This document shows, one piece after another, positions 2,122-63,587 of a stretch of 64,000 nt of DNA. A model generated the notes under the pieces. That model was given only the letters and a program-made list of their open reading frames with translations, was not told where the DNA came from and searched no databases. Positions within the stretch are counted from its first letter, which is position 1. Each line of letters opens with the position of its first letter. The position numbers and the translations under genes were made by a program. The DNA comes from Bacteroidales bacterium (GTDB taxonomy: Bacteria; Bacteroidota; Bacteroidia; Bacteroidales; UBA3663): positions 9,123-73,122 of the forward strand of contig JAZNGG010000015.1 of assembly GCA_045576355.1 (NCBI GenBank), written 5' to 3'.

Positions 2122-5100
2122 ATGTCAGCAAAAGCGTGGAAAGAACAGGTGACCATCCCCACCTATGAAGTGGGCAAACCTGAAAAGAATCCCATATTTC
2201 TGGAGAAACGTGTCTATCAAGGTTCGAGCGGAGTAGTCTATCCTTACCCCGTGATCGAGTCAATGAGCGACGAGCGGGTGGACAAGGAGTATGAAGCCAT
2301 CTATCTCGAAAACGAATATATCAAAGTGATGATCCTGCCCGAGCTGGGCGGTCGTGTCCAGATGGCATACGACAAGATCAAGCAGCGTCATTTCGTCTAT
2401 TATAATCATGTCATCAAGCCTGCCCTGGTCGGCTTGGCCGGCCCCTGGATCAGTGGCGGCATCGAGTTCAACTGGCCGCAACACCACCGTCCATCGACCT
2501 ACCTGCCCGTCGATACGACGATCGAAGAGCATGCCGATGGTTCGGTCACAGTCTGGATCAACGAAATGGAGCGGATGTTCCACCAGAAAGGGATGGCAGG
2601 GTTCACTCTCCGTCCCGGTTGTGCCTATCTGGAGATAGAGGGCAGGCTGAGTAACCGCACCTCCATGCCGCAGACCTTCCTTTGGTGGGCCAATCCTGCG
2701 GTTGAGGTCAACGACTATTATCAGAGTGTTTTCCCGCCGGATGTCAATGCCGTGTTTGATCACGGCAAGCGAGCCGTCAGCTCCTTCCCCATAGCGACAG
2801 GCACCTATTATAAGATGGACTATTCGGCTGGTGTCGATATCTCCAACTATAAAAACATCAAAGTCCCGACCTCCTACATGGGCGTTAACTCCAAGTATGA
2901 CTTTGAGGGAGGTTATGAGAATGACACCCACGGAGGCATGCTACACGTGGCAAGCCACCATTTCAGCCCCGGCAAGAAACAATGGACCTGGGGCAACGGC
3001 GACTTCGGTCGTGCCTGGGATCGTTGTCTCACCGACGATGACTATGAGGGTGCACCCGGCGTATTCCGCCCCTACATTGAACTGATGGCAGGCATATATA
3101 CCGAAAACCAACCCGACTTCACCTGGCTGATGCCTTATGAGGAGAAACAGTTTGTGCAGTACTTCATGCCCTACCGTGAGTTAGGCATCGTCAAGCAGGC
3201 GACCAGAGATTTTGTCTTCAACATCGAGCAGGCTGCAGCGGGGAAAGTCCGTATCATGGTGATGAGTACTTCTCGTCAGCAGGTATATCTCTCTTTGCGT
3301 CACAAGGATTTGACTCAGGAATTTTATCAGAAGCAACTTACCCTCACGCCCGAAGAGATTCTGGAGGAGGAGATCCATGTCGGAGAATGCACTCTCAACG
3401 ATCTTCACTTCACCATCTCCAAAGATTTTGAGGGACAAGAGAGACTCACCCCCTCGGCACACTATCCCTTCCACGGTCGTATCGTACTGGAGTGGTATGC
3501 CGAGCCGGACGAGATCCGTCCCATCCCCGATGCCGCCGAGGCAGCACTCACTCCGCAAGAGACCAAGACCATCGATCAGCTTTACCTGACCGGTCTGCAC
3601 CTCGAGCAATATCGTCACGCCACATGGTCGGCGCTCAATTATTATGAGGAGGCTCTCCGTCGCGACCCGTTGGACTATCGATGCAACAATCAGATCGGCT
3701 TGTGGTATCTCCGCCGCGGACGATTCGATAAGGCTGAACAATATCTGCGCACTGCGGTCAAAGTCTTGCAGAAGCGTAACCCCAACCCCTATGATGGCGA
3801 ACCGCTCTTCAATCTGGCACTCTGCTTAAAACACCAATTCAAGTTGCAAGAGGCTTACCACTGGTTTTGGAAATCGACATGGAACAAGGCCTGGGCAGAT
3901 GCCGGATACTTCGAAGCCGCCTGCATCAGTACCGGCCAGCGCCGCTATGAAGAGGCTCTCGACGAGGTGGAACGCGCACTCATCAGCAATGCTCGCAACC
4001 ACAAGGCACGCGCTCTTAAAGCGATCATCTTGCGCAAGATGGGACGCACCGACGAGGCTCTGACATGGATCCGCTCGTCTCTCGCAGTCGATCTCTTCAA
4101 CTATGTCTGCCGCTACGAGCAGTACCTCCTCACCCGAGATGAGACCTTGCTGGCAGAGTTGAAGCGACTCTTGCGCGGATCATGCCATAACTATGACGAG
4201 GTGGCATTAGACTATCGGCAGGCAGGACTCACCGATGAGGCTCAGGCCATCTGGCGCTTAGCCATCGAGGAGCAAGCCGTCAGCCCCATGACCTATTATT
4301 ATATGGGTGACTACGAGCAAGCTGAAAAGATCTCTCCGGACTATTGCTTCCCCAACTCCGTCGATGCCATCATCGCACTCACACTCGCCAAGGCATGCAA
4401 CCCACAAGGCGCTCGCGCACCCTATTATCTCGGATGTCTCTATTACGACAAGCGTCAGTATGACCTGGCACGCGACAATTGGGAACTCTCTGCTCGGCTC
4501 GACCCCGAGTTCCCCACCGTGTGGCGCAACCTGGCTCTCTATTATTACAACAAACAGAAGTGCCGCGACAAAGCGATCGACTGCATGGAGCGGGCATTCA
4601 GCCTCGACACCACAGACAGCCGCATCCTCATGGAGCTGGATCAACTCTACAAAGTGACCGGCAAGCCTCACGCAGAGCGACTCGAATTTTTGGAGCAATA
4701 CCCGGCACTCATCGCCGAACGCGACGATCTGCTGCTCGAACAGATCACTCTGCTCAATCAGCTCGGTCACTACCGCGAGGCTATGAACCTCCTCGACAGA
4801 CACATCTTCCATCCGTGGGAAGGTGGCGAAGGCAAGGTGCCGGCACAATATCAATTCTCCCGTGTGGAATGGGCGAAGCAGATATTAAAAGAGGAAAAAG
4901 GGAAAAAGCAGATCGATAAAGCAAAGATGGATCTGTGTCTGGACCTTCTCCTGGAGTGTTTCGACTACCCGCATCATTTGGGAGAAGGCAAACTGCTGGG
5001 GGCACAGGAAAATGACTTCTCATACTTCATGGGCCTTACCTACGAGTATCTGGATGACCTCCCGACCGCTCGCATCTATTGGGAGAATGCCACAGTAGGA

Positions 5101-5475
5101 TCCACCGAGCCGGCTGCTGCAATGTACTATAACGATGCCAAACCCGAAAAGATCTTCTATCAAGGCATGGCTCTGCGCAAGCTGGGACGCATCGATGAAG
5201 CCAACAGCCGTTTCCACAAGTTGGTCAACTACGGCAAACAGCACATCTTCGAACCACAGGTGATGGACTACTTTGCGGTCTCACTCCCCGACCTGCAGAT
5301 CTGGGATGGTGATCTCAACCTGAAAAACCGCATCCACTGCCTCTTCATGCTCGCCCTTGGCTACATGGGTCTCAATGAGATCCATAAGGCAGAGCGCTAT
5401 ATGAAAGAAGTGGAGCAACTGGACATCAATCACCAGGGGATACAAGCACTACGAACATTCATGGAGCAGTATTAG
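2122..5475 (+). CDS. DUF5107 domain protein with a long TPR-repeat C-terminal region (1117 aa)
   Basis: The N-terminus (IPTYEVGKPEKNPIFLEKRVYQGSSGVVYPYP ... LPELGGRV ... IKPALVGLAGPWISGGIEFNWPQHHR) matches my memory of the DUF5107 signature. The remainder is TPR-like helical repeats. It starts 24 nt after the GH43 stop and is probably co-transcribed. Confidence 0.75.
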   Translation: MSAKAWKEQVTIPTYEVGKPEKNPIFLEKRVYQGSSGVVYPYPVIESMSDERVDKEYEAIYLENEYIKVMILPELGGRVQMAYDKIKQRHFVYYNHVIKPALVGLAGPWISGGIEFNWPQHHRPSTYLPVDTTIEEHADGSVTVWINEMERMFHQKGMAGFTLRPGCAYLEIEGRLSNRTSMPQTFLWWANPAVEVNDYYQSVFPPDVNAVFDHGKRAVSSFPIATGTYYKMDYSAGVDISNYKNIKVPTSYMGVNSKYDFEGGYENDTHGGMLHVASHHFSPGKKQWTWGNGDFGRAWDRCLTDDDYEGAPGVFRPYIELMAGIYTENQPDFTWLMPYEEKQFVQYFMPYRELGIVKQATRDFVFNIEQAAAGKVRIMVMSTSRQQVYLSLRHKDLTQEFYQKQLTLTPEEILEEEIHVGECTLNDLHFTISKDFEGQERLTPSAHYPFHGRIVLEWYAEPDEIRPIPDAAEAALTPQETKTIDQLYLTGLHLEQYRHATWSALNYYEEALRRDPLDYRCNNQIGLWYLRRGRFDKAEQYLRTAVKVLQKRNPNPYDGEPLFNLALCLKHQFKLQEAYHWFWKSTWNKAWADAGYFEAACISTGQRRYEEALDEVERALISNARNHKARALKAIILRKMGRTDEALTWIRSSLAVDLFNYVCRYEQYLLTRDETLLAELKRLLRGSCHNYDEVALDYRQAGLTDEAQAIWRLAIEEQAVSPMTYYYMGDYEQAEKISPDYCFPNSVDAIIALTLAKACNPQGARAPYYLGCLYYDKRQYDLARDNWELSARLDPEFPTVWRNLALYYYNKQKCRDKAIDCMERAFSLDTTDSRILMELDQLYKVTGKPHAERLEFLEQYPALIAERDDLLLEQITLLNQLGHYREAMNLLDRHIFHPWEGGEGKVPAQYQFSRVEWAKQILKEEKGKKQIDKAKMDLCLDLLLECFDYPHHLGEGKLLGAQENDFSYFMGLTYEYLDDLPTARIYWENATVGSTEPAAAMYYNDAKPEKIFYQGMALRKLGRIDEANSRFHKLVNYGKQHIFEPQVMDYFAVSLPDLQIWDGDLNLKNRIHCLFMLALGYMGLNEIHKAERYMKEVEQLDINHQGIQALRTFMEQY

Positions 5476-5477
5476 TT

Positions 5478-5650
5478 GATGGGGACTTCGTCCTGCTATG
5501 GCTGATGGCGATGGCGCGATTGGTTTAAGGGTACCTTTTAGGCATTAAGGGCATCAAGGCCTTAAAATTATAATCCTCTGCCATCAGCCATAGCAGGACG
5601 CAACCCCTAAACCCTTAAACCCCTAAACCAACAAACCAACAAACCAAACG
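5478..5650. repeat. Mosaic intergenic repeat locus R1
   Basis: A perfect 20-bp inverted repeat, GTCCTGCTATGGCTGATGGC (5490-5509) and GCCATCAGCCATAGCAGGAC (5580-5599), surrounds a 70-bp spacer. It is followed by the heptamer run CCCTAAA/CCAACAA (5603-5648). The locus begins 3 nt after the upstream stop codon. Confidence 0.85.
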
Positions 5651-5670
5651 TTAAAAAACCTTTCCCCCTC

Positions 5671-5701
5671 TTGACATTGGCTTTCGGATGTTATATCTTT
5701 G
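5671..5701 (+). promoter_or_regulatory. Bacteroides-type promoter of candidate sRNA A
   Basis: TTGACA at 5671-5676 and a perfect -7 box TAtcTTTG at 5694-5701. The whole 45-bp block is conserved in copy B. Confidence 0.5.
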
Positions 5702-5707
5702 TAAAGT

Positions 5708-5787
5708 TTAAGTTGAAAGATAGATGAAGCGTTGAGACGTTGCAGGGCAGATCGCCCTACATGTTTCGATGCTTCATCGCTTTTTTG
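5708..5787 (+). ncRNA. Candidate small RNA A (about 80 nt) ending in a long hairpin plus U-tract
   Basis: Hairpin at 5723-5778 (GATGAAGC...GCTTCATC outer stem, GGGC/GCCC apical stem) followed by GCTTTTTTG. Several G-U pairs exist only on the + strand. A paralog lies at 19255-19356 (-). Confidence 0.4.
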
Positions 5788-5878
5788 TCTCCCTGCACTC
5801 GGCCGTTCGGATGAAAATTCAATGGTCCGAAAGAGTCCATTCATAGAGTTTATTTGCTTAAAAGGCCGAGGCTTTTTA

Positions 5879-6032
5879 CTTCACGAGCGTACCCTCATTA
5901 TTCAACGAGCGTACCCTCGTTGGTCGATGAGCGTACGCTCGTTGTGCAACGAGGCTACGCGTGTTAAAAATTAGCCCCGCCGCGTTACACTAAATAAGCC
6001 AATGAAAATCTCATGAGAGCCAATGCGTGAAA
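5879..6032. repeat. 22-bp-period minisatellite, array A
   Basis: Units are CTTCACGAGCGTACCCTCATTA, TTCAACGAGCGTACCCTCGTTG, GTCGATGAGCGTACGCTCGTTG and TGCAACGAGGCTACGCGTGTTA (5879-5966). About 3 decayed units follow. Confidence 0.85.
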
Positions 6033-6224
6033 ATTTTCTCTTTTTCAACTTTTAGCTCAGACTTTACTATGATTTTCACTTTATGTTCAGATCCCTATTC
6101 AAAAAATCATTAAGAGGCATCCATTGTGTTAGGCTTCATACCGAACTATATGCAAAATCGGATAAAATGATATACGAAGATGGCATTTACATGTTAATTT
6201 TCTAAAAAACGATAGCTCAGGGCT

Positions 6225-6492
6225 GCGAGTTGAGAAGAGTACAGAGAACAGAGTACAGAGAACAGAGAAGCCATAGCGGACGAAGTCCCTTATTTGGTTT
6301 AGAAGTTTAAAGGTTTAGAAGTTTATTTTTTCAACCCTTCAACCCTTCAACCACTAAACCAACCATAGCCATCAGCCATAGCAGGACGCAACCCCTAAAC
6401 CACTAAACCACTAAACCACTCAACCACTCAACCCCTAAACCAACCATAGCCATAGCCATCAGCCATAGCAGGGCGCAGCCCCTAAACCCCTC
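6225..6492. repeat. Mosaic intergenic repeat locus R2
   Basis: A GA-rich run is followed by CCATAGCGGACGAAGTCC, then GGTTTAGAAGTTTA twice, CAACCCTT twice, CCATAGCC/CCATCAGCC units and ACCACTAA/ACCACTCA runs. The same words recur at R3, R7 and R8. Confidence 0.85.
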
Positions 6493-6594
6493 AACCCAAA
6501 AAGAGCGGCATGCCGACATAAAATCGACACACCGCCCCGTCCCACGCTGTTAGGATATTATCTATACAAGACCCTCAAAGAGGTCCCGCACAAA

Positions 6595-10380: not shown

Positions 10381-10548
10381 AAGTAAGAAAAAGAGCAAAG
10401 AGGAAACTGAAAACAAAGCCATAATCTATCGCCATCAGCCATAGCGGGCGCAGCCACAAGCCCTCGCCATAGCAGGACGAAGTCCCCCTGCCATAGCCAT
10501 AGCCATAAGCCATAGCGGGCGCAGCCCTTTAAACCCCTCAACCACCCC
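10381..10548. repeat. Mosaic intergenic repeat locus R3
   Basis: A GA-rich tract is followed by CCATCAGCCATAGCGGGCGCAGCC, CCATAGCAGGACGAAGTCC, CCATAGCC twice, CCATAGCGGGCGCAGCCC and finally TTAAACCCCTCAACC. Confidence 0.85.
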
Positions 10549-15913: not shown

Positions 15914-16170
15914 AGGGCTGATGGCTGCAATGGCTCATAGTGAGGGCTTATGGGGCTGCGCCCGCTATGGCTGATGGCGATAGCTTATAGCTTTGTTTTC
16001 ACCTTTCTCCTTTCCCCTTTCAGTTTTCTCCTTTCCTCTTATCAAGGCGCAGCCCCTTATCACGCGCAACCAACGACCAAAGAGAGTAACCCTTCAACCC
16101 CTCAGCCCCAAAACCCCTCAACTCCTAAAACCCTCAACTCCTAAACCAACAAACCAATAAACCAATAAAA
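15914..16170. repeat. Mosaic intergenic repeat locus R4 (two head-to-head modules)
   Basis: GGCTGATGGC/CTATGGC units and GGGGCTGCGCCC are followed by a CT-rich tract. Then come GGCGCAGCCCC, CGCGCAACCAACGACCAAAGAG and CCCTCAAC/CCTAAACC/CAACAAAC heptamer runs. Confidence 0.85.
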
Positions 16171-17291: not shown

Positions 17292-17333
17292 AAATAAACG
17301 GCAGCATCATCGAGATGCTGCCGTTTATTTTAT
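17292..17333 (+). terminator. Intrinsic terminator after rbr (17-bp stem plus T-run)
   Basis: AAATAAACGGCAGCATC, loop atcga, GATGCTGCCGTTTATTT, followed by TAT. Confidence 0.8.
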
Positions 17334-17334
17334 T

Positions 17335-17570
17335 GGTTTAGGAGTTGAGGGGTTGAGGAGTTTAGGGGCTGCGCCCCACTATGGCTGGGACTTCGTCCAC
17401 TATGACTGATGGCGATGGCTGGGGCAAAGCCCACTATGGCTGATGGCGATGGCTATGGCTTTCCACTTTTCGCTGTTCTCTTTTCTCTTGGAATATGGCG
17501 TTGTTTTCATCTTTCCTCTTTCCTCTTTTCTCTTTCCTCTGTACTGTCATATTTTTTTCTCACACAGAAA
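17335..17570. repeat. Mosaic intergenic repeat locus R5 (reverse orientation)
   Basis: GGTTTAGG/GTTGAGG heptamers, GGGGCTGCGCCCC, GGGACTTCGTCC, GGGGCAAAGCCC and CTATGGCTGATGGCGATGGC units, then a CT-rich tract and GTACTGTCATATTTTTTTCTCACACAGAA. It abuts the fmt stop codon. Confidence 0.85.
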
Positions 17571-18699: not shown

Positions 18700-18895
18700 T
18701 TAGGGGGTGCAGCCCTTAAAGCCGCTAAACGCATGACCGAAGGGAATAGATAACGCACGCTATAGCTTGCGTTTCCCCTCCGGAAGTGAAGCTCCGGGAA
18801 GCAGTTGCGCCCTGCGAGATCTGTGCGCTCGTGCAAAAAAATGGCGTACTTTTTAAAGAGAAAAAGTGAAAGCCATCTGCCATCGCCATTAGTTA
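18700..18895. repeat. Mosaic repeat locus R6a
   Basis: GGGGGTGCAGCCCTTAAAGCC, ACGCATGACCGAAGGGAATAGATAACGCACG, the hairpin ACGCA...TGCGT, GTGCAAAAAAATGGCGTAC, a GA tract and GCCATCTGCCATCGCC. These are related to modules at 19590-19760. Confidence 0.75.
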
Positions 18896-18991
18896 AAGTT
18901 TAAAAAATATTAACGCTCCATTGCCATCTCAGTTTGACAATTAAGGAGACGTCGGGCGAAGTTTTTAGGAAAAATGAAACAAGAAAAAATT

Positions 18992-19190
18992 TTCACTCAT
19001 CGGCTCGCGTAAGATCACGGATCGGCACGTGTTGTTTCACGCGTCGAGTCTCGTTACATAACGCGTCGAGTCTCGTTGCATAACACGTCGGCATGTGTTT
19101 AAACACGCGTAGCCTTGTTGCATGATTCGCGTAGCCTTGTTATGTCATGAGGGTAGCCTTGTTACGTCATGAGGGTAGCCACTTCAAACA
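18992..19190. repeat. 22-bp-period minisatellite, array B (about 8-9 units)
   Basis: The + strand units include TCACGCGTCGAGTCTCGTTACA, TAACGCGTCGAGTCTCGTTGCA, TAACACGTCGGCATGTGTTTAA, ACACGCGTAGCCTTGTTGCATG, ATTCGCGTAGCCTTGTTATGTC, ATGAGGGTAGCCTTGTTACGTC and ATGAGGGTAGCCACTTCAAACA. Confidence 0.85.
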
Positions 19191-19254
19191 CTTAAACCTA
19201 TGTTTTGTCTCACTCGAACCTATGAATTTTAGTGGGATAACAGAGTGTGAAGAC

Positions 19255-19356
19255 AAAAAAAAGATGAAGCATCGAAACATGGAGGGCGATTCACCCTATG
19301 ACGTCTCAACGCTTCATCGTTTACTACCCCTAAACTTGGGGTAATCACCAAAAATA
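19255..19356 (-). ncRNA. Candidate small RNA B (about 100 nt), paralog of candidate A
   Basis: Read on the minus strand: hairpin 19318-19263 (GATGAAGCGTTGAGACGTCATAGGGTGAATCGCCCTCCATGTTTCGATGCTTCATC) followed by T8 (19262-19255). The 5' segment differs from copy A. Confidence 0.4.
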
Positions 19357-19361
19357 TAATA

Positions 19362-19392
19362 CAAAGATACAACAATCAAAAGCCGATGTCAA
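19362..19392 (-). promoter_or_regulatory. Bacteroides-type promoter of candidate sRNA B
   Basis: Read on the minus strand: TTGACA (19392-19387) and TAtcTTTG (19369-19362). The block is nearly identical to 5671-5701. Confidence 0.5.
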
Positions 19393-19575
19393 GAGGGGAA
19401 AAGTTTTTTTAACAATTCGGTGCTGCGGCGAAAGAACAGAGAACAGAGGAAAGAGGAAAGATGAAAGGAGAAAGGAGAAAACGGATAGCCATAGTGGACG
19501 AAGTCCCTAAGCCATCTGCCATCGCCAATAGCCATAGTGGGCTTTGCCCCAGCAATAGCGGAGAATGATTTGGTA

Positions 19576-19728
19576 TTTTTGCACACAGAAGACACAGAAC
19601 CCGCGTAGCACACGACCGAAGGAAATAACACACAGAGCGCACATGTTTCGCAGTGCTTCCCTTCCGGATGGTAAACGCAAGCGTAAGCGTGCGTTTTCTG
19701 TGTATTTTATGTATTCTGTGTGCAAAAA
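19576..19728. repeat. 153-bp unit bounded by 15-bp inverted repeats
   Basis: TTTTTGCACACAGAA (19576-19590) pairs with TTCTGTGTGCAAAAA (19714-19728). An internal hairpin ACGCAAGC-GTAA-GCGTGCGT is present. Confidence 0.75.
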
Positions 19729-19833
19729 AAATGACAGTACAAAGAAAAGAGAAAAGAGAAAAGAGGAAAGGAGAAAACAAAGCAATCTGCCATAGTGGGC
19801 TTTGCCCCAGCAATAGCGGAGAATGACTTGGTA

Positions 19834-20018
19834 TTTTTGCACACAGAAAACACAGAACCCGCGTAGCCCACGACCAAAGGGAGTAAGACACAGACCACGC
19901 GTAGCACACGACCGAAGGAAATAACACACAGAGCGCACATGTTTCGCAGTGCTTCCATTCCGGATGGTAAACGCAAGCGTAAGCGTGCGTTTTCTGTGTA
20001 TTTTGTGTATTCTGTGTG
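19834..20018. repeat. Second inverted-repeat-bounded unit (with a roughly 30-bp internal duplication)
   Basis: TTTTTGCACACAGAA (19834-19848) pairs with TTCTGTGTG (20010-20018). The CGCGTAGCxCACGACCxAAG word is duplicated inside. Confidence 0.7.
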
Positions 20019-20400
20019 AGACAAAAACTGTAGAAGACGGCTTTAAGGGCTAAAAAAGGCAAAAAGGGCAAAAAGGCATCCAACCAACCGCATAGTAATA
20101 ACAAGAGTACAGAGAAAAGTGAAAGGAGAAAGGAGAAAGGAGAAAACAAAGCCATCTGCCATCGCCATCAGCCATAGTGGGGCGCAGCCCCTAAACTCCT
20201 CAACCCCTAAACCCCTAAACCAAACAGGGCGCAGCCCTAAACTCCTCAACCAACCACAAATCATTTTCAGTAAATATACACATTTTATGCGCCATAAATA
20301 TAAATTTCATACGTTTTCTGTATCTTTTTCCCATTATTTTGCTATTTTACCAAAAATTCTGCTTATTTTTGCGCCATTGATTAAAAAACTTTATGATGCT

Positions 20401-21894
20401 ATGGTTACTTATCCAGTCTTAACTGCCGAAGAGGCAGCTCGCTTAATCCAACACAACGACACGATCGGAATCGGAGGATTCTCCTCTGTCGGAACGCCCA
20501 AAGCCATTCCGGCAGCATTAGCAACATACGCGAAACAACAGCATGAAGCAGGCAAAGAGTTTCAAATCGGGCTCATCACTGGAGGTGCCACCGGCAACCC
20601 CATCGACACAGCCCTCGCAGAGGCAAAGGCTGTCAAATTTCGCACCCCATTCCAGTCCAATAAAGAGATGCGCAATGCCATCAACCGTGGCGAAGTGCAA
20701 TATTTCGACCTCCACCTCTCAATGATCGGGCAGGATGTCCACTACGGTTTCCTCGGCAAGATCGACGTGGCTATCGTCGAAGCATCAGCCATCACTCCTG
20801 ACGGAGGGATCATCCTCAGCACATCAGTAGGCATCGCCCCCACTCTCGTGGAGAAAGCGGACAAAGTGCTTATCGAACTCAATGACTATCACGCCGGCAA
20901 ACTGACCGGCATGCACGATATCTACATCCCGGAGTGTCCTCCTCATCGCAAGCCGATCGCCATCTGTCATCCCGGCGAGCGCATCGGTACCCCGGACATC
21001 AAGGTCGATCCGCGCAAGGTGATCGGTGTTGTCAAGACATGTGATCGAGACAACCTCGCACCATTCACCCCACTCAATCGGGAGACACAGCAGATCGGAT
21101 ACAACGTCGCTGCATTCCTCTCTGCCGAACTCAAGCGCGGAGGCATCCCTAAGGAATTTCTCCCACTGCAAAGCGGCGTGGGCAACATTGCCAATGCCGT
21201 ACTCGGAGCATTGGGCGATGACGACTCTCTCCCTCCCTTCTCGATGTACACCGAAGTGATACAAAACTCAGTCATCGATCTGATGAAGAAAGGTCGTTGC
21301 GAGTATGTCACCGGCAGTTCGCTCACACTCGACGAGGAGAAACTCGACGAGATGTATAGCAACATGGACTTCTTCGGCAAGCGCGTATTGCTCCGTCCGC
21401 AGGAGATCACTAACCACCCGGAGGTGATCCGTCGTCTCGGCATCATCGCTGTCAATACCGCCTTGGAGATGGACATCTTTGGCAATGTCAATTCGACCCA
21501 TGTCCTCGGCACAAAGATGATGAACGGCATCGGCGGTTCGGCAGATTTCGCCCGCAATGCCTATCTCTCCATCTTCACCACTCCCTCGACAGCCAAGGGA
21601 GGACTCATCTCCTCCGTCGTGCCGATGGTTTCTCACGTCGATAGTTCAGAACACTCCGTCCGTGTCGTGGTGACCGAACAGGGAGTGGCAGACCTGCGCG
21701 GCAAGTCTCCGGCTCAGAGAGCGCGTTGCATCATCGAAAACTGTGCCCATCCGGACTATAAAGAGTTGCTCTGGGACTTCTTAAGACTCTCAGAGGGGAA
21801 AGGTTATCATACCCCCACCTCACTCAGCAATGCTTTCCGGATGCACCTTGCATTTGAAGAGACCGGAGACATGCGCAACACCCAGTTTATCTGA
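20401..21894 (+). CDS. Acetyl-CoA hydrolase/transferase family protein (succinate/acetate CoA-transferase type)
   Basis: Start trimmed to MVTYPVLTAEEAARLIQHNDTIGIGGFS; the upstream part of the track ORF runs into the repeat. Contains SGVGNIANAVL and EMDIFGNVNSTHVLGTKMMNGIGGSADFARNA. Confidence 0.85.
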   Translation: MVTYPVLTAEEAARLIQHNDTIGIGGFSSVGTPKAIPAALATYAKQQHEAGKEFQIGLITGGATGNPIDTALAEAKAVKFRTPFQSNKEMRNAINRGEVQYFDLHLSMIGQDVHYGFLGKIDVAIVEASAITPDGGIILSTSVGIAPTLVEKADKVLIELNDYHAGKLTGMHDIYIPECPPHRKPIAICHPGERIGTPDIKVDPRKVIGVVKTCDRDNLAPFTPLNRETQQIGYNVAAFLSAELKRGGIPKEFLPLQSGVGNIANAVLGALGDDDSLPPFSMYTEVIQNSVIDLMKKGRCEYVTGSSLTLDEEKLDEMYSNMDFFGKRVLLRPQEITNHPEVIRRLGIIAVNTALEMDIFGNVNSTHVLGTKMMNGIGGSADFARNAYLSIFTTPSTAKGGLISSVVPMVSHVDSSEHSVRVVVTEQGVADLRGKSPAQRARCIIENCAHPDYKELLWDFLRLSEGKGYHTPTSLSNAFRMHLAFEETGDMRNTQFI

Positions 21895-22108: not shown

Positions 22109-23164
22109 ATGAAACAGATGCAGATTCATAATAGCACAGATATTATTGCCGATATTAAGCAGATTATCGATCAAGCGAGAAAACAAGCATACACTTCGAT
22201 TAACACATTGATGATACAATCGAATTGGTTGGTGGGTCGTCGTATTGTGGAGGAAGAACAAGGTGGAGCTTCACGAGCTGAATATGGCAAGGCTCTGCTG
22301 AAGAATCTTGCCACCGAGTTGATGCCGATATACGGCAATTCATATTCAGCCCGTCGCTTGCAGGATTATCGTCAATTCTATCTTTATTGCAAGGATATAG
22401 AGAATTGGCACACGCGAGTGCCAAATCTTACTTGGACACATTATCGTGAATTGCTTACGGTTAGCGATGAGACTGCTCGTCAATGGTATATGCAGGAGGC
22501 AGCCAAAGAAATGTGGAGCGTCCGCACTCTTCACCGCAATATATCATCGCAATACTATTATCGTTTGTTGCAATCGCAAACAAAGGATGTGGTAATCGAT
22601 GAGATGAAACAGATTACAGCACCTATGCAGGGTGACAAGTTGGAGTTTATCAAGAATCCTGTTGTTGCAGAGTTTTTAGGGCTGGCTCCGAATACAAAAT
22701 TCTCTGAAACTGAATTGGAGAGTGCCATAATCACCCATCTTCAGAAATTCATTATGGAATTGGGGAAAGGTTATGCCTTTGTTGCTCGTCAACAACATAT
22801 CCGAACAGATATGGGCGACTTCTATATCGACCTCGTGTTCTACAACTACATTCTCAAATGCTTTATGCTTGTTGATTTGAAAACAGAGCAAATAAGTCAT
22901 CAAGATGTAGGGCAGATGGACATGTATATCAGAATGTACGATGAGTTGAAACGAACGGAGGGCGATAATCCGACAATCGGACTTATCCTTTGCTCTCGTA
23001 CAAGTGAGGATATGGCACGATACTCTATGCTTAAAGATAATGATCGATTGTTTCAAGCAAAATATCTCACATTCTTGCCAACAAAAGAGGAATTGACAAA
23101 TGAGATTGAGCGTCAAAAAATGATATTCAGATTGCAGCAAGAAAATGACACTCCCGAAGAATAA
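22109..23164 (+). CDS. PDDEXK nuclease domain protein, YhcG/DUF1016 family
   Basis: The N-terminal helical domain (NWLVGRRIVEEEQGGASRAEYGKALLKNLA...YRQFY) and the C-terminal PD-(D/E)xK core (FYIDLVFYNYILKCFMLVDLKTEQISHQDVGQMDMYI) are typical of DUF1016. Confidence 0.8.
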   Translation: MKQMQIHNSTDIIADIKQIIDQARKQAYTSINTLMIQSNWLVGRRIVEEEQGGASRAEYGKALLKNLATELMPIYGNSYSARRLQDYRQFYLYCKDIENWHTRVPNLTWTHYRELLTVSDETARQWYMQEAAKEMWSVRTLHRNISSQYYYRLLQSQTKDVVIDEMKQITAPMQGDKLEFIKNPVVAEFLGLAPNTKFSETELESAIITHLQKFIMELGKGYAFVARQQHIRTDMGDFYIDLVFYNYILKCFMLVDLKTEQISHQDVGQMDMYIRMYDELKRTEGDNPTIGLILCSRTSEDMARYSMLKDNDRLFQAKYLTFLPTKEELTNEIERQKMIFRLQQENDTPEE

Positions 23165-31917: not shown

Positions 31918-31998
31918 CGTTTTTATCTTGGAAAAAAGAAGTTTCTCTCTCTCTTTTCTCTCCCATGAGAGCCTTTCTCTCACCGTTCTGTCAGCCTA

Positions 31999-32086
31999 TA
32001 CACATTACACGGCAGCGTCATACACGTTACACGGCGGCGTCGTGCAAGTCACACGGCGGCATCATGCAAATACATTTCCGAAACAT
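31999..32086. repeat. 22-bp-period minisatellite, array D (different unit sequence)
   Basis: Units are TACACATTACACGGCAGCGTCA, TACACGTTACACGGCGGCGTCG, TGCAAGTCACACGGCGGCATCA and a decayed TGCAAATACATTTCCGAAACAT. The array is preceded by a CT-rich tract. Confidence 0.8.
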
Positions 32087-32302: not shown

Positions 32303-33538
32303 TTATCTGTTGCTAACAGGTCTTACATATAACACTCCACCACCTTTGACCTCTTTTTCCTCATAAAAATTATATTTCTTGCCCGTTATTGGATGTGTCC
32401 AATCAAACTCTTTGTCACTCCTAAATGGACAAAGGACAAGCCCATAGTCACAATATGTGTGAGCTTTTTCTGTCAGCACTTCACCGACTCCGATTTCTTT
32501 CTCAATAGATACTAATTCGTTATGAAAATCGGCTTTTATTTCTCGAAAGTCATCATCGGAAAGACCACCGACGTTACAATTTCTCTTATATTGTTCTCCA
32601 CAATCTACTGCATCTTTTAAATACCCAATAATGTCTTCTGAAGCACTCAAATAGACGGTGATGTCATGCTTGCTGCTTTTTTTAACGTATGGAAGAAAGA
32701 TCACAGATGTACCATCTACTTTATCACTGATATAAAACCCTTTAGTACCATTATACTCACCGCTTTTCCAACAGCACTCCTCTTCCAGTTCCTGCCACTC
32801 CCATTCTGTGGGAATACGATACTTGTTCCCCATAGTTCGAGTTGCGACATCATATTTAGAATTTCCTAACCAATTATTATCATCGACATCCTCAGGTACA
32901 AAATAACGTGTCTCATCGGAAGATATATCATACAAAGCATCAGATTCATCATAATCAAATGGCTTAAATGCAAAACGCTGCTGTAATAAAGTTCCGGCAA
33001 GCGACGAAGAACTTGCACCCATATTGTATGATGCCCACTTTACGCTCAATCCTAAATCGACTAAATCATCGTCAGACAACTTAAAATCAGGCGTTTCAAA
33101 ACTGCGGATTTCCCCATTGTATTTGGTTCCTCCAACATAAGCATAGGCACGATAATAATAAATGGTGCCCGGCTCTAATAATCCTTCACCATCTGAAATA
33201 AGATCTGTCGTGAAATGTCCATTAGAAACACCGCTGTTAGAAATTGCAAACTTTGTCTCACTGGTATTAAAATTGGGTTGGAAAGGGGTAAACTCTACTC
33301 CTAAAGTGCTATATGCGCCCTGATAAACGGTATTAATCGAAGATAATATAGTAGCTGTTAATGGTTTCACATCTCGATAACCTCCGGTAGCCACAAAGCT
33401 ATTTTTTGTGATTTTACCATAATCTTCGGAAACATCTACCATAGGATCTAATTCTTCATCATCTTCACTACAAGCAGCAAAGTTCACACACATCAGAATG
33501 GCAATAACAGCCATCCCAATTTTTCTTAAAGTTTTCAT
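32303..33538 (-). CDS. Lipoprotein with an Fn3-like N-domain and a FISUMP/DUF1566-like C-domain
   Basis: Start trimmed to MKTLRKIGMAVIAILMCVNFAACS. Contains GTIYYYRAYAYVGG (Fn3-like), VDLGLSVKWASYNMGA and KYRIPTEWEWQEL (the FISUMP-type WRLPT-EW-L pattern). The gene is AT-rich. Confidence 0.6.
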   Translation of the reverse strand: MKTLRKIGMAVIAILMCVNFAACSEDDEELDPMVDVSEDYGKITKNSFVATGGYRDVKPLTATILSSINTVYQGAYSTLGVEFTPFQPNFNTSETKFAISNSGVSNGHFTTDLISDGEGLLEPGTIYYYRAYAYVGGTKYNGEIRSFETPDFKLSDDDLVDLGLSVKWASYNMGASSSSLAGTLLQQRFAFKPFDYDESDALYDISSDETRYFVPEDVDDNNWLGNSKYDVATRTMGNKYRIPTEWEWQELEEECCWKSGEYNGTKGFYISDKVDGTSVIFLPYVKKSSKHDITVYLSASEDIIGYLKDAVDCGEQYKRNCNVGGLSDDDFREIKADFHNELVSIEKEIGVGEVLTEKAHTYCDYGLVLCPFRSDKEFDWTHPITGKKYNFYEEKEVKGGGVLYVRPVSNR

Positions 33539-33582
33539 TAAATATAAAAATAAAAAGAAGGCGTAAACTATTCGATACTCGC

Positions 33583-33706
33583 CTTTGCTTAAGGTTACCG
33601 CCAAGTGACCACGTTTACGACAAGCACGAACAGCCCACACCTAAGTGTGAACTTACTTCGCTGCTTATTCTCGTAAACTGAATGATTGGCGGTATTCAAA
33701 GCAAAG
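33583..33706. repeat. 124-nt rod-like near-perfect palindrome
   Basis: Nested helices: CTTTGCTT/AAGCAAAG, TACCGCCAA/TTGGCGGTA, GTTTACGA/TCGTAAAC, AAGCACGAA/TTCG(C)TGCTT, and CACAC-ctaa-GTGTG. There are no G-U pairs, so the strand is undetermined. Confidence 0.75.
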
Positions 33707-47815: not shown

Positions 47816-47947
47816 CTTCACGAGGGTACGCTCATGACGCAACGAGGGTACGCTCGTGAGGCAATGAGGCTACGCTCGTGATACAACGAGGGTACGCTCG
47901 TGAGGCGATGAGGCTACGCGCGTTATTCAACGGGACTCTTGACAAAT
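47816..47947. repeat. 22-bp-period minisatellite, array C (cleanest copy)
   Basis: Units are CTTCACGAGGGTACGCTCATGA, CGCAACGAGGGTACGCTCGTGA, GGCAATGAGGCTACGCTCGTGA, TACAACGAGGGTACGCTCGTGA, GGCGATGAGGCTACGCGCGTTA and one decayed unit. Confidence 0.85.
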
Positions 47948-57960: not shown

Positions 57961-58614
57961 ATTACTTTATCCCCATCGATCATTAGCCCCAAAAGACGAT
58001 ATTAAGCTATTGCTGTGTCTGTTTTCAGACGATAGTGCACACCTTCTCACCCGTCTTACGCTAATCGGACAACTCCTGTTGGATCTATGTTGCCTTATGC
58101 TCTATATATTAATCAGTAAATAAAACTATATTCATCCCTTAACATAGATAATAAGAACGCTTTAAATAAGCATGAAGAACTCCAATTATTTAATAAATAC
58201 AATATTGCGGCGGATTATACATAACATTGTGGAGCATTATCCCAAATATTGTGTATAATTGTACTGCGTATTGTGTACATTTTTATGAAGGCATTTTTTA
58301 TGGGTTTGTTTGCCTGTCCTAATACTTTTAATAAGCGTTCCTATCTACTTTCTTGTGCTATTCTTTTTGGAGTATGTCCCGTTATGTTTATAAACACCTC
58401 TGCACCAAGTATGACGACCTCAGGAGGGCAAGCAAATGCGCACTTACCGACAGACGTTCATTGGGAAAGAGCCCTAAAACCGGATTCTGACGATAGCTTA
58501 TAAAGTAGAACCAGCCATAATATCAAGCAAACCTTAATCTTCAGAGCTGCGTCTTCGAGAGGCAACTTGATGGTCTAAAGACCGACTTGGGGTTAATCAC
58601 ATTATTACATAGCT

Positions 58615-61227: not shown

Positions 61228-61938
61228 TTAGTTTTTAGCGTGTTGTCTTCTTTTATAACACATCGCGTAGTCGCACAGACCGCATGAGTATTGTTGGGGT
61301 TTCACCTCTTTACCCACACCGATTACACCACTAACCGACTTGATGGGAAGCATAAGACAAGACTCGGTCAAACGGATACCGCAGGGAGTGGACGAAGGGA
61401 AGAGAGAGAAAAGCTCCTTCTGTCCGGACAAATGCCAACCACAATAACCGGGACTGAACCGTAACGTATGATGCAAATCCACCGAGTCTAACCGGCTCTG
61501 CAAGTCTGCCTCCATAAGGTCTGCCACTTTTTCGACCAATGCCGACCCGATGGCATCCGCAATATAAACTTTCAGCATATCACCCTCTCGCTTCAGTTGC
61601 TCCATCCACAGATCAAACTCCTCTCCGACTGTCGCTGTAAAAATGAGAAACAGCGTGGCATCTTGGAGTTGGTGGGCAATGATCTTCCCCACCTGAAAAA
61701 GAGACTTCCGCTCTGCTCCCAATGTTAAGGTTGCGGCCGTTCGGTCAAGAGTTCCCGGTACGAAAAGATAGGTATAGCGGGGCAAAGCACAACTCACAGC
61801 TTCTGCATAGAGGGCATCCACCTCCCGGATTAAAGAATCTCCTTCGCTATGATGCGGCAAAGCATCTCCCATCGCCTCCAGTATCTCGGAGCGCGAGAGA
61901 GCCCATTCATCATGAGAAAGTTTTCGTTCGATTTGCAT
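61228..61938 (-). CDS. Protein with a vitamin-B12-dependent methionine synthase activation-domain-like fold
   Basis: RFSPGYCGWHLSGQKELFSLF resembles the SPGYG-type block of Met_synt_B12-like proteins. These commonly sit beside URO-D-family methyltransferases. Confidence 0.55.
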   Translation of the reverse strand: MQIERKLSHDEWALSRSEILEAMGDALPHHSEGDSLIREVDALYAEAVSCALPRYTYLFVPGTLDRTAATLTLGAERKSLFQVGKIIAHQLQDATLFLIFTATVGEEFDLWMEQLKREGDMLKVYIADAIGSALVEKVADLMEADLQSRLDSVDLHHTLRFSPGYCGWHLSGQKELFSLFPSSTPCGIRLTESCLMLPIKSVSGVIGVGKEVKPQQYSCGLCDYAMCYKRRQHAKN

Positions 61939-61971
61939 TTTGGTTGAGTAGTTGAAAGGATGAATGGATTC

Positions 61972-62163
61972 TTAGAGAAAAGGAAAACTGAAAGGTGAAA
62001 ACTGAAAACAAAGCCAAAAGCCATAGCGGACGAAGTCCTTGTTTAGTTTAGAAGTTTATTTTTTAGCACGCGAAGCCCATGACCAAATAAAGATGAAAAC
62101 TGAAAACAAAACCATCAGCCATAGCAAGGCGCAGTCCCCTAAACCACTAAACCAACACTGCCA
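61972..62163. repeat. Mosaic intergenic repeat locus R7
   Basis: A GA tract, CCATAGCGGACGAAGTCC, TTGTTTAGTTTAGAAGTTTATTTTTT, CGCGAAGCCCATGACCAAATAAAG, a second GA tract, CCATCAGCCATAGCAAGGCGCAGTCCCC and CTAAACCACTAAACC. Confidence 0.85.
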
Positions 62164-63198
62164 TCAGCCAATATTCCACTTTGCCACTGCATCAAAGAAA
62201 GCTTCTATATTGGCAGCAGATACTCCGGGAGGAATATCACAACCCGAGGAGATAACAAAATTGCGATATGTCTGAGTAGCATCCAAGAGTTTCAGAGTCT
62301 CCTTACGCACCTCGTCCGGACTTGCCTGTTGGAAAATACTAACAGGATCAATATTACCCATCACTAAGACATCTGAGGGACACTCCTGCAAAGCAGCTGT
62401 CATATCGATCTTATTACCGAAATGATAAGCCGCAGCACCTGAAGCCACCATGGCCGAAGTGCATTGTCCTGTATTGCCACAATTATGAAGGATTACCATA
62501 AAATGCTCATCCTGAACACGCTCCACGATTTCCTTGACATAAACCGAGGAGAAGAGGCGGCAATCATCGTCTGAAAGGAGTCCTGCTGCCGGCTCAGCCA
62601 TCATAACCCCCTGCACGCCACAGGCTTTCAACGCCAAGCAGTAATCGATCAGAAATGCCGTACACTTCTCCAGCAACCGGCGCGCAGCAGCCGGATTGAC
62701 ATAGATCAGCATCATGATCTCAGACATGTCATAAAGTCGGCCGGCCAAAGAGTAGGGTCCGATACAACCCGCCAAGACCGGACGATCTGTGATGCTCCGA
62801 GAGAGGAGCAGATTGGCACGCAGATATTCGGGTACGCGACCGGCAGAAAGCGCCGGAACCTGCAGACGATCGATGTCTCGCTCGTTGTGGAGCAGCCTGC
62901 CGACGACACTCGGCACTTCATCTTCCGGAAAGACCACCTCTGCGCCAAAAGCCTCAGCCTCCACCGTCAGATCCATAATCACCGTGGCAGCTGCACCCGG
63001 ATAACGATGAGCGACAGCCTCAACGGCTTCGGCATGAACACGACCATCGGTCACCGCACGACACACAGTCTGTCCGATCATTTCGATTCCCGGATGAGTC
63101 ATAATCGGGCAAGCCACCCGATTATGTGACACCATAATCTCATTTGCCCAATGGGACATATCACACTGCTTCATTGTATAACTCTTTAATTCTTTCAC
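62164..63198 (-). CDS. Uroporphyrinogen decarboxylase-family methyltransferase (MtaA/CmuA-like)
   Basis: 344 aa with a URO-D fold. It is typical of corrinoid-dependent methyltransferase systems. Confidence 0.75.
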   Translation of the reverse strand: MKELKSYTMKQCDMSHWANEIMVSHNRVACPIMTHPGIEMIGQTVCRAVTDGRVHAEAVEAVAHRYPGAAATVIMDLTVEAEAFGAEVVFPEDEVPSVVGRLLHNERDIDRLQVPALSAGRVPEYLRANLLLSRSITDRPVLAGCIGPYSLAGRLYDMSEIMMLIYVNPAAARRLLEKCTAFLIDYCLALKACGVQGVMMAEPAAGLLSDDDCRLFSSVYVKEIVERVQDEHFMVILHNCGNTGQCTSAMVASGAAAYHFGNKIDMTAALQECPSDVLVMGNIDPVSIFQQASPDEVRKETLKLLDATQTYRNFVISSGCDIPPGVSAANIEAFFDAVAKWNIG

Positions 63199-63209
63199 TT
63201 TTAGTCAGG

Positions 63210-63217
63210 CAAATGTA
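63210..63217 (-). promoter_or_regulatory. -7 promoter box (TAcaTTTG) for the URO-D-family gene
   Basis: The reverse complement of CAAATGTA, about 12 nt upstream of the ATG at 63198. Confidence 0.45.
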
Positions 63218-63321
63218 AGAAATAATATGTAATTATCCGAAATCTCAGGCGAAAAAGCTACAAACTTTCCTTAATACAAGAAAAAATTATTACCTTCGCT
63301 CCGAAAAACATCTTTTCTTGG

Positions 63322-63562
63322 CAAAGAAAAGTAAAGAGCAAAGAGAAGCCATCAACCATTGCGGACGAAGTCCTTGTTTGGTTTAAAAGTTTAAAGGTTT
63401 AGAAGTTTATTTTTTCAACCCTTCAACCACTCAAACCTTCAACCCGCGAAGCCCACGACCAAATAAAGAGCAAAGATGAAAGAGCAAAGCCATAGCCATC
63501 GCCATCAGCCATAGCAGGGCGCAGCCCTTTAAACCCCTCAACCCTTCAACCACTCAACCAAA
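63322..63562. repeat. Mosaic intergenic repeat locus R8
   Basis: Same module order as R7 and R2. A GA tract, GCGGACGAAGTCC, TTGTTTGGTTTAAAAGTTTAAAGGTTTAGAAGTTTATTTTTT, CAACCCTTCAACC, CGCGAAGCCCACGACCAAATAAAG, a second GA tract, CCATAGCC/CCATCGCC/CCATCAGCCATAGCAGGGCGCAGCCC and heptamers. Confidence 0.85.
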
Positions 63563-63587
63563 ACAAAACCAATTACTACTATACACG

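Follow-up and report, generated by a model that had tools for sequence, protein, structure and literature searches.

A modular family of intergenic repeats carrying tagged mini-hairpins in a Bacteroidales chromosome

The window analyzed here is a 64,000-nucleotide (nt) stretch of chromosomal DNA from an uncultured, gut-type Bacteroidales bacterium (contig JAZNGG010000015.1), whose genes specify GH43, GH31 and pectin-degrading enzymes, a hybrid two-component sensor, MscL, Fur, rubrerythrin, Fmt, RNase Y, TatC, fumarate reductase, TyrRS and ProRS. The closest named homologues of the window proteins, 66–76% identical, come from metagenome-assembled genomes labelled "Bacteroidales bacterium" and from Phocaeicola; it is the names of the Fmt and URO-D homologues that place the DNA in the Bacteroidales. 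Several sequencing runs yielded short Logan contigs with exact copies of the window proteins. Nine loci in the spaces between these genes hold DNA assembled from one set of short repeated modules, and this repeat family is the subject of the present work. An earlier note on the same DNA had claimed a dispersed, modular, non-coding intergenic family, and word enrichment, self-blastn and the location of the loci outside open reading frames (ORFs) all bear this out.

Repeats were mapped by sensitive self-blastn, pattern annotation in both orientations and Tandem Repeats Finder, with expected counts taken from shuffled sequence. The word ATCAGCCATAG occurs 10 times in 64 kb against an expectation of 0.03, and GGRCGNAGYCC occurs 14 times against 0.39. 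Self-blastn marked repeated DNA at 5481–5790, 6268–6497, 10408–10543, 15952–16165, 17333–17557, 18869–18889, 19251–20224, 61991–62154 and 63356–63562, that is, the nine loci already listed in the earlier note together with a second, separate element (E22) beside two of them, and nothing else. All nine lie outside the long ORFs of the ORF map; they hold about 20 tagged units, the genes none, and the units in the window point 13 one way and 4 the opposite way. Their total of 2.56 kb, given as roughly 2.7 kb in the earlier note, makes up about 24% of the roughly 10.5 kb of intergenic DNA. The accompanying statement that almost every gap longer than 300 bp is filled was too strong: the family occupies 6 of the 11 gaps of at least 300 bp, plus one of 225 bp, and its density is regional, confined to 5.4–20.3 kb and 61.9–63.6 kb with none at 20.3–61.9 kb. 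That loci often begin near stop codons holds true, as locus 1 starts 3 nt past the TAG stop of gene 2122–5475 and the TGA of gene 62164–63198 sits within the repeat word GGCTGATGG at locus 8.

The modules follow a fixed, oriented order, as had been proposed and as pattern annotation recovered on both strands. A purine tract (P) of 7-mers (AGAGAAC/GAAAGGA) with a period of 7 is followed by a (GCCATN)n run (G6) with a period of 6/13, then by a tag, CCATAG, which is separated by a 1–2-nt spacer from a hairpin of 4–5 bp with typically a G-N-A triloop. Next comes either the T module, (GGTTTAGAAGTTTA)n ending in a T-run, or C-rich octamers with a period of 8 (AACCCCTA, AACCACTA, TTCAACCC). The word CGCGWAGCCCACGACC comes after GGTTTAGAAGTTTA or the C-rich octamers, before the series restarts. 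A linker, K (CGCGWAGCCCACGACCRAA), which holds GCGAAGC or GCGTAGC, then leads into a second P, G6, tag, hairpin and octamer series, often closed by (AAACCAAY)n. The "heptamers" of the earlier note are therefore only partly right: the GA tracts do have a period of 7, and the C-rich runs have a period of 8 and are mostly octamers. Units are chained head to tail through the linkers T, K and, at loci 6 and 7, a unit of about 180 nt termed X. Between the T module and the octamers complementarity is about 75%, and the mismatches put A opposite C. Loci 8 and 9 are full composites and the backbone of locus 2 is nearly the same base for base; the three near-identical composite copies are up to 57 kb apart. 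The nine loci are made up as follows.

5478–5535, − strand: locus 1, left unit, inverted, with hairpin GGACGAAGTCC at 5483–5493.
5568–5650, + strand: locus 1, right unit, with GCCATCAGCCATAG, a decayed hairpin, octamers and a (AAACCAAC)n tail; left and right units form a 28-nt inverted pair, 89% complementary, at the only strongly folding locus.
6225–6497, + strand: locus 2, three tandem units.
Locus 2, modules in order: P tract 6236–6269; tag and hairpin CCATAGC-GGAC-GAA-GTCC 6271–6288; T module (GGTTTAGAAGTTTA twice, then T6) 6294–6331; octamers 6333–6362.
Locus 2, continued: (GCCATN)n and tag 6363–6383; decayed hairpin 6384–6394; octamers 6390–6443.
Locus 2, last part: (GCCATN)n and tag 6444–6470; hairpin GGGC-GCA-GCCC 6471–6481; octamers 6479–6497.
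10381–10548, + strand: locus 3, P tract, three tagged hairpins (loops GCA, GAA, GCA) and octamers.
15914–16040, − strand: locus 4, inverted part, a decayed unit, hairpin GGGCGCAGCCC at 15953–15963 and a P tract.
16041–16170, + strand: locus 4, forward part, a hairpin remnant, K at 16063–16081, octamers and an (AAACCAAY)n tail.
17335–17570, − strand: locus 5, two P tracts, three tagged hairpins (TTT, GAA, GCA) and octamers, between the fmt stop and the rubrerythrin terminator.
18700–18895, + strand: locus 6, a divergent copy of the X unit (about 180 nt) including a K-like word, a short P tract and GCCATCTGCCATCGCCAT.
19428–20262, + strand: locus 7, P-Ha-Hc-X, then a tandem duplicate of about 260 bp (P-Hc-X with an extra K), and last P-(GCCATN)n-Hb-octamers-Hb-octamers, with its end immediately 5' of the acetyl-CoA hydrolase promoter region.
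61939–62166, + strand: locus 8, P-Ha-T-K-P-Hb'-octamers, a full composite inserted between two operon genes that used to be adjacent; the TGA stop of gene 62164–63198 comes from it.
63322–63575, + strand: locus 9, P-Ha-T-octamers-K-P-(GCCATN)n-Hb-octamers-tail, likewise a full composite, within a divergent promoter region.

Locus 7, listed earlier simply as one more locus, does belong to the family, and part of it is the local tandem duplication of about 260 bp.

The hairpins of these units take three main forms, written as stem, loop and stem: Ha, GGAC-GAA-GTCC; Hb, GGGC-GCA-GCCC; and Hc, GGGC-TTT-GCCC. They occur in tagged words such as CCATAGCA-GGGCGCAGCCC and CCATAGC-GGACGAAGTCC. Among 23 distinct tagged hairpins collected from the window and related contigs, only paired stems were seen (GGAC/GTCC in 7, GGGC/GCCC in 16), and the loop was GCA in 10, GAA in 8, GTA in 2 and TTT in 3, making 20 of the 23 G-N-A loops with N being A, C or T, a narrow choice that we read as a sign of constraint on the hairpin. 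The tag was CCATAG in 19 of these units, CCATCG in 3 and CCATTG in 1. Within the loci the family's + strand carries GCGNAGC 14 times and the other strand never, a density 22 times background. GCGNAGC is known as "mini-hairpin DNA"; its DNA form is extraordinarily stable, its RNA form less so, and it is found in single-stranded DNA priming sites and phage N4 promoters (PMC13037366). The strand bias and the sequence class suggest that the family hairpin is a strand-specific signal, probably one read on single-stranded DNA.

The repeats are not an assembly artefact, since independent assemblies reproduce them. Logan assemblies from at least six runs contain family sequences; contig L007 (L-numbers denote fetched contigs and loci of strains, sister lineages and relatives) equals the window base for base over 61987–63392, and L006 differs by a few single-nucleotide polymorphisms (SNPs) and one 7-nt unit. 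The lineage or its sister lineages were present in runs DRR768612, DRR773925, SRR24653741, ERR15157066 and SRR28221527. Short-read contigs from independent samples and runs (L006, L007, L017, L026–L032, L037) terminate inside P, T or octamer modules, as is expected of multi-copy DNA; the repeats therefore fragment assemblies of this organism, and such fragmentation may be the reason that collections of species-representative genomes do not show the family.

Comparison with related contigs revealed gain, loss and variation at several loci. The gene pair flanking locus 8 (61228–63198, − strand) encodes a URO-D-family (MtaA/CmuA-like) methyltransferase and a protein with a Met_synt_B12 activation domain. 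These genes overlap in L008 (78% identity) and stand 12 bp apart in L033 (83% nt identity), whereas in the window a 225-bp composite separates them; the site is thus empty in L008 and in the close relative L033. The element alters the end of the upstream protein, which reads …KWNIG* in the window versus …KWNLELV* in L033. The junction lies at a native TGGTTTAG, which is already present in the empty site of L033 and equals one octamer unit, and two small family-like fragments of 12 and 23 nt lie a few bases away. The syntenic gap between fmt and rubrerythrin measures 117 bp without an element in L025, versus 302 bp in the window. At locus 9, L033 has the same outer junctions, and a single unit with hairpin GGGGC-GTA-GCCCC replaces the composite.

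At the strain level, flanking DNA differs by 0.6–0.8% SNPs and by homopolymer-length indels only. In the stutter modules the differences come in whole units: a 7-nt indel at 62094, deletions of 7 nt (one) and 8 nt (four) in L029, and a 21-nt deletion in L030. At locus 4 the P tract behaves as a variable-number tandem repeat across strains, with the 7-nt and 21-nt deletions, and the four 8-nt deletions of L029 fall in the forward part. The internal module content of orthologous elements also varies between lineages. Gene order differs at two places bordering repeats. The acetyl-CoA hydrolase gene (20290–21894) is inverted relative to L017 and L036, where it lies directly 5' of fmt and co-oriented with it across a gap of about 105–133 bp; in the window the inverted gene is separated from fmt by 1.7 kb of repeats. 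In L028 a GH43 gene stands in place of fmt after rubrerythrin.

Outside the window the family follows a narrow clade. The sister lineage L017 (93% Fmt identity) has a GA tract and GCCATCTGCCAT right after the fmt stop. In L036 a full 205-bp element is the entire spacer between the fmt stop and the stop codon of the convergent gene that follows, and an inverted unit lies 5' of the hydrolase gene. L028 carries units after rubrerythrin and beside a GH43 gene, and has family words at 1280–1740 and 3400–3489. Sister lineages have the family at the same and at other sites (L017, L028, L033 and L036), so the words are not confined to the window; confinement to it would have pointed to a local duplication. 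In relatives at 77–80% protein identity, sensitive blastn detected no family DNA in 58 kb, while L017 and L028 were positive by the same search. The core pattern GCCATCAGCCATAGN{1,2}GGNCNNNGNCC, which fits 6 units of the window, gave 5 chance matches in 185,579 GTDB species genomes and 7 in JGI metagenomes; each of these consists of a single family word, all lie in high-GC DNA except L011 (50% GC), and none is in a known relative. Two scans of IMG/VR viral contigs gave no matches. Rfam 15 had no hit in the window at the gathering threshold, and at E<1 returned only spurious eukaryotic models far below gathering (six miRNA precursors and one snoRNA). Blastn of locus 9 against plasmids and phages gave nothing relevant, and literature searches found no description of the repeat family. 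The absence of a match to described families, as the earlier note had it, stands, and the family is previously undescribed.

The data presented above have led us to regard the family as a young, clade-restricted, non-coding and non-autonomous mosaic interspersed repeat, similar to the REPs (repetitive extragenic palindromes) and BIMEs (bacterial interspersed mosaic elements) of other bacteria and evolving by slippage and recombination; we give this reading a probability of about 0.6. New copies would come from an activity whose gene lies outside the window and which recognizes the tagged mini-hairpin on a single DNA strand; the obvious candidate is an HUH/Y1-type enzyme. Alternatively, template switching or gene conversion might make the copies, with short matches to octamer or purine tracts as primers. 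Once settled, arrays would grow, shrink and reshuffle by slipped-strand mispairing and by recombination between internal direct repeats. Effects on neighboring genes, namely the supplied stop codon, the split operon, hairpins in 3' untranslated regions and a C-rich leader, look incidental and not like the cause of the family's existence.

Several observations weigh against this interpretation. No Y1/HUH enzyme, transposase or integrase is encoded in the window ORFs, which were scanned with Pfam and had been predicted to lack them, or in any fetched locus. The tag reads ATAG or ATCG, unlike the GTAG or CGTC of described REPs, and the units mostly follow one another head to tail, as those of REP families rarely do (PMC3733652). 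An inverted-repeat search at loci 1, 2, 8 and 9 found no terminal inverted repeats, only the internal complementarity of T and octamers. Locus 8 shows no target-site duplication relative to the empty site of L033, a comparison that involves a single site and species 83% identical. At locus 9, accretion is indistinguishable from deletion between two internal P tracts because the extra block has P tracts on both sides. The apparent covariation of the hairpin stem rests on very few independent events because the stem variants amount to a few sub-families.

The main competitor sees in the elements portable punctuation for transcription or RNA, retained because it is functional and serving as terminators, insulators or 3'-end stabilizers, as has been proposed for REPs. 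Read in the + direction, they would give the mRNA a small hairpin and, after it, either a U-rich T module or a long tract rich in C and free of G, of Rho-loading composition; read in the other, they would give G.U-paired hairpins followed by a pyrimidine tract. This agrees with the several elements that begin at or within a few nt of stop codons, with the L036 element that fills a whole 205-bp convergent spacer, and with the composition of the octamer and tail tracts (0–5 G versus 11–35 C). On the G-rich strand, G.U pairs give the CUAUGG repeats and the T/octamer pair the better fold; at locus 2 that strand gave z-scores of −5.1 and −4.2 in two runs, versus −2.9 and −3.0 for the other, and the inverted pair of locus 1 folds with a z of about −7. 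However, only loci 1 and 2 fold better than shuffles, the minimum-free-energy z-scores of the other 8 of 10 tested segments being unremarkable, and terminator-like sites are no commoner than in shuffles. On the gene map the orientation of the elements relative to flanking transcription is inconsistent, with about half of the C-rich ends facing the 3' end of a convergent gene; one element splits an operon and one lies in a divergent promoter region. Loci 2, 4 and 5 adjoin separate hairpin-plus-T-run terminators (that at locus 2 called by scan, those at 4 and 5 by eye), the strand signals conflict, with G-N-A loops on one strand and G.U pairing on the other, and module lengths drift freely between strains. 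A selected role of this kind is accordingly unlikely to account for the family.

A bolder proposal is that the family exemplifies a new mode of spreading, in which the ATAG-tagged G-N-A DNA mini-hairpin on one strand nucleates copying by template switching or gene conversion on 5–8-nt octamer or purine matches, without inverted ends or target duplication, or in which an unrecognized Bacteroidales HUH-type enzyme with a new tag specificity does the work. The locus 8 junction, at the native TGGTTTAG with the small family-like fragments inserted a few nt away, hints at the former route. In either case the outcome would be hypervariable "contingency" spacers that reshape operons and gene order. 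We regard this as speculative and quite doubtful. The repeats give no sign of a new principle, and their value is moderate.

Much less credible is an origin in place, by independent expansion of micro- or minisatellites or by a single local duplication, with no dispersed family of common descent. The loci do consist mostly of 6–8-nt tandem repeat, unit-step slippage was observed directly, locus 7 is in part a local tandem duplication of 260 bp, and the empty site of L033 already contains TGGTTTAG, one octamer unit. Complex, non-repetitive words such as CCATAGCGGACGAAGTCCTTGTTTGGTTTAGAAGTTTA and CGCGAAGCCCACGACCAAATAAAGA, however, are nearly unchanged across loci up to 57 kb apart and at non-orthologous sites in other lineages, and the module order is identical everywhere; it is the sharing of unique words that excludes an in-place microsatellite origin.

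Least tenable of all, to the point of near-certain rejection, is the idea that the repeats encode small hydrophobic, for example toxin-like, peptides, with the G-rich strand reading MAMA(D/M)G and then F/L/S-rich stretches: ATG-started ORFs of 33–98 aa do recur over hairpin and purine-tract segments and the source record annotates one ORF of 248 aa, but neither of the periods, 7 and 8 nt, can be divided by three and strain indels of 7 and 8 nt would shift any frame, which excludes coding, and there is no homologue, no Pfam match and no frame common to the copies. The 248-aa ORF (19409–20155, − strand; P0241 in the source NCBI record) lies wholly over repeats, matched only itself among 5.8 billion proteins and has no Pfam match, so it is almost certainly a spurious gene call, in keeping with the suspicion that long ORFs over the repeats are translation artefacts.

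Other ideas were set aside. A G-quadruplex or telomere-like reading of (CCCTAAA)n met with few loci that have four G-runs and with octamers that vary (CCACTAA, CCTTCAA). An argument from GC skew about the replication strand was too weak with nine loci. The tandem arrays of the window are not a CRISPR array, in which unique spacers separate regularly placed identical repeats of 24–48 bp, as they are spacer-less repeats of 6–8 nt or 22 nt, and Pfam found no cas genes.

A second repeat, E22, is interleaved with the family and is present in two copies in the window and also in L028 at 1460–1640.

5651–6224, + strand: E22a, separate from the family, with a TTGACA-17-TATCTTTG box, a 23-bp hairpin and T-run at 5726–5788, and 22-bp tandem repeats at 5883–5953.
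18896–19427, − strand: E22b, the second copy, likewise separate from the family, with 22-bp arrays at 19039–19180.

The E22 hairpin, which accompanies the promoter-like box, has 18+5 bp with four G.U pairs and a U8 run and looks like a small RNA or a terminator; Rfam has no match to E22. About 100 nt past the hairpin come tandem repeats of 22 bp (ACGAGCGTACCCTCGTTGTTCA), every one of them a small palindrome, together with a GTGAAAATTTT box. E22b shows a 22-bp unit indel between strains, one strain having an extra unit at 19064. Tandem arrays of 22 bp also occur at 31998–32069, 47820–47932 and 58201–58253, in large intergenic gaps without the main family; that at 47820 is the E22 unit reversed, and those at 31998 and 58201 have different units. 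The X unit of about 180 nt is found at 18700–18850, 19556–19740 and 19812–20030 and also in L028 at 3430–3489. It has long inverted arms (GCACACAGAA...TTCTGTGTGC), an A-run, internal small hairpins and the K-like word CGCGTAGCACACGACCGAAGG. A related strain carries it at a different genomic site, so X is a dispersed module and goes beyond a local duplicate. The X unit and the E22 hairpin have ACATGTTTCG..TGCTTC in common.

Two genes were noted in passing. The − strand ORF at 32303–33640 encodes an orphan protein of 445 aa with no Pfam or NCBIfam match, in a segment of 38% GC against about 48–55% in its neighbors, and may have been acquired horizontally. At 22109–23164 on the + strand, just 3' of the inverted hydrolase gene, lies a gene for a protein of the YhcG/DUF1016 PDDEXK-nuclease family, for which no link to the repeats was established.

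The repeats matter in practice for assembling and annotating this lineage: they break short-read assemblies, carry a spurious annotated protein, alter gene ends, split an operon and border changes in gene order. They would suit strain typing as markers. The clade series, running from no element (relatives at 78–80%) through one unit or an empty site (83% nt identity) and the composites of the window to the unit-step variants of strains, could show the birth and spread of REP-like DNA, and the one-strand class of DNA mini-hairpin offers a concrete biochemical handle for finding an enzyme.

Among known systems, REPs invite the closest comparison. A REP has, next to a stem-loop, a terminal tag that reads either CGTC or GTAG (in variants of the latter the first G is retained); its stem is 5–13 bp and the element 20–40 bp, the smallest described stem being 5 bp in Thauera, and inverted dimers predominate over the rare head-tail arrangement (PMC3733652). 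Like the REPs, BIMEs and REPINs of Proteobacteria and other bacteria, the Bacteroidales repeats are dense and extragenic, often lying just 3' of genes and between convergent genes; like GTAG-1 and GTAG-2 REPs, they combine a short tag, 1–2 unpaired nt and a stem-loop with a very short loop; and, again like REPs, they fall into sub-families through complementary stem changes, form mosaics with linker motifs and vary in abundance by lineage (PMC3733652, PMC2817692). They differ in the tag, which is ATAG, ATCG or ATTG; less clearly in the stem, whose 4 bp, or 5 bp in some copies, enclose a 3-nt loop and equal or fall short of the smallest described REP; in the mostly head-to-tail units, only locus 1 being an inverted pair; and in consisting mostly of 6–8-nt tandem repeat, which REPs lack. 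A cognate RAYT (Y1/HUH) gene, which in genomes with REPs is typically flanked by the repeats, was not found among the window ORFs or in the fetched loci.

Pneumococcal BOX elements (boxA-boxB(n)-boxC) are likewise ordered, modular, non-coding intergenic mosaics with a variable internal module and no transposase of their own. BOX modules are unique sequences of 45–60 nt that fold into a long RNA hairpin; the variable modules of the present family are 6–8-nt stutters, its overall folding is weak and there is no sequence relation. The STRR sequences of heterocystous cyanobacteria, described by Mazel et al. in 1990, are reportedly dispersed runs of one heptamer, e.g. CCCCAGT. The present family resembles them in having tandem units of the 7-nt class at many intergenic sites of one lineage, in strand asymmetry and in providing strain fingerprints, and differs in its several stutters in fixed order, its tagged hairpins and its unique linker words, in addition to belonging to another phylum and having other sequences.

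BrickBuilt elements of Porphyromonas gingivalis have IS5-type terminal inverted repeats and a single 23-nt minisatellite (PMC4596501). With BrickBuilt and MITEPgRS the family shares a Bacteroidales host, species restriction, intergenic composites, a variable tandem array and partial or mosaic copies (PMC4596501); it has neither inverted termini nor target duplication, and its repeat units are much shorter. The idea that it itself belongs to the miniature inverted-repeat transposable elements was ruled out by the absent terminal inverted repeats. It is E22, with its leader and promoter-like box, 22-bp minisatellite and tail, whose architecture recalls BrickBuilt. The GCGNAGC mini-hairpins of phage G4, ssiA and the N4 virion RNA polymerase promoters share with the family a C-G-closed G-N-A triloop, a 3–5-bp stem and restriction to one strand (PMC13037366). 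Those are single functional sites on phage or plasmid single-stranded DNA, unlike the dispersed chromosomal copies here, and the likeness is one of sequence class. On the reading preferred here, the family is a Bacteroidales counterpart, in role, of the REP/BIME or BOX mosaics and a member of neither; it is new as a family, and its principle is already known from the REPs and BIMEs of other bacteria.

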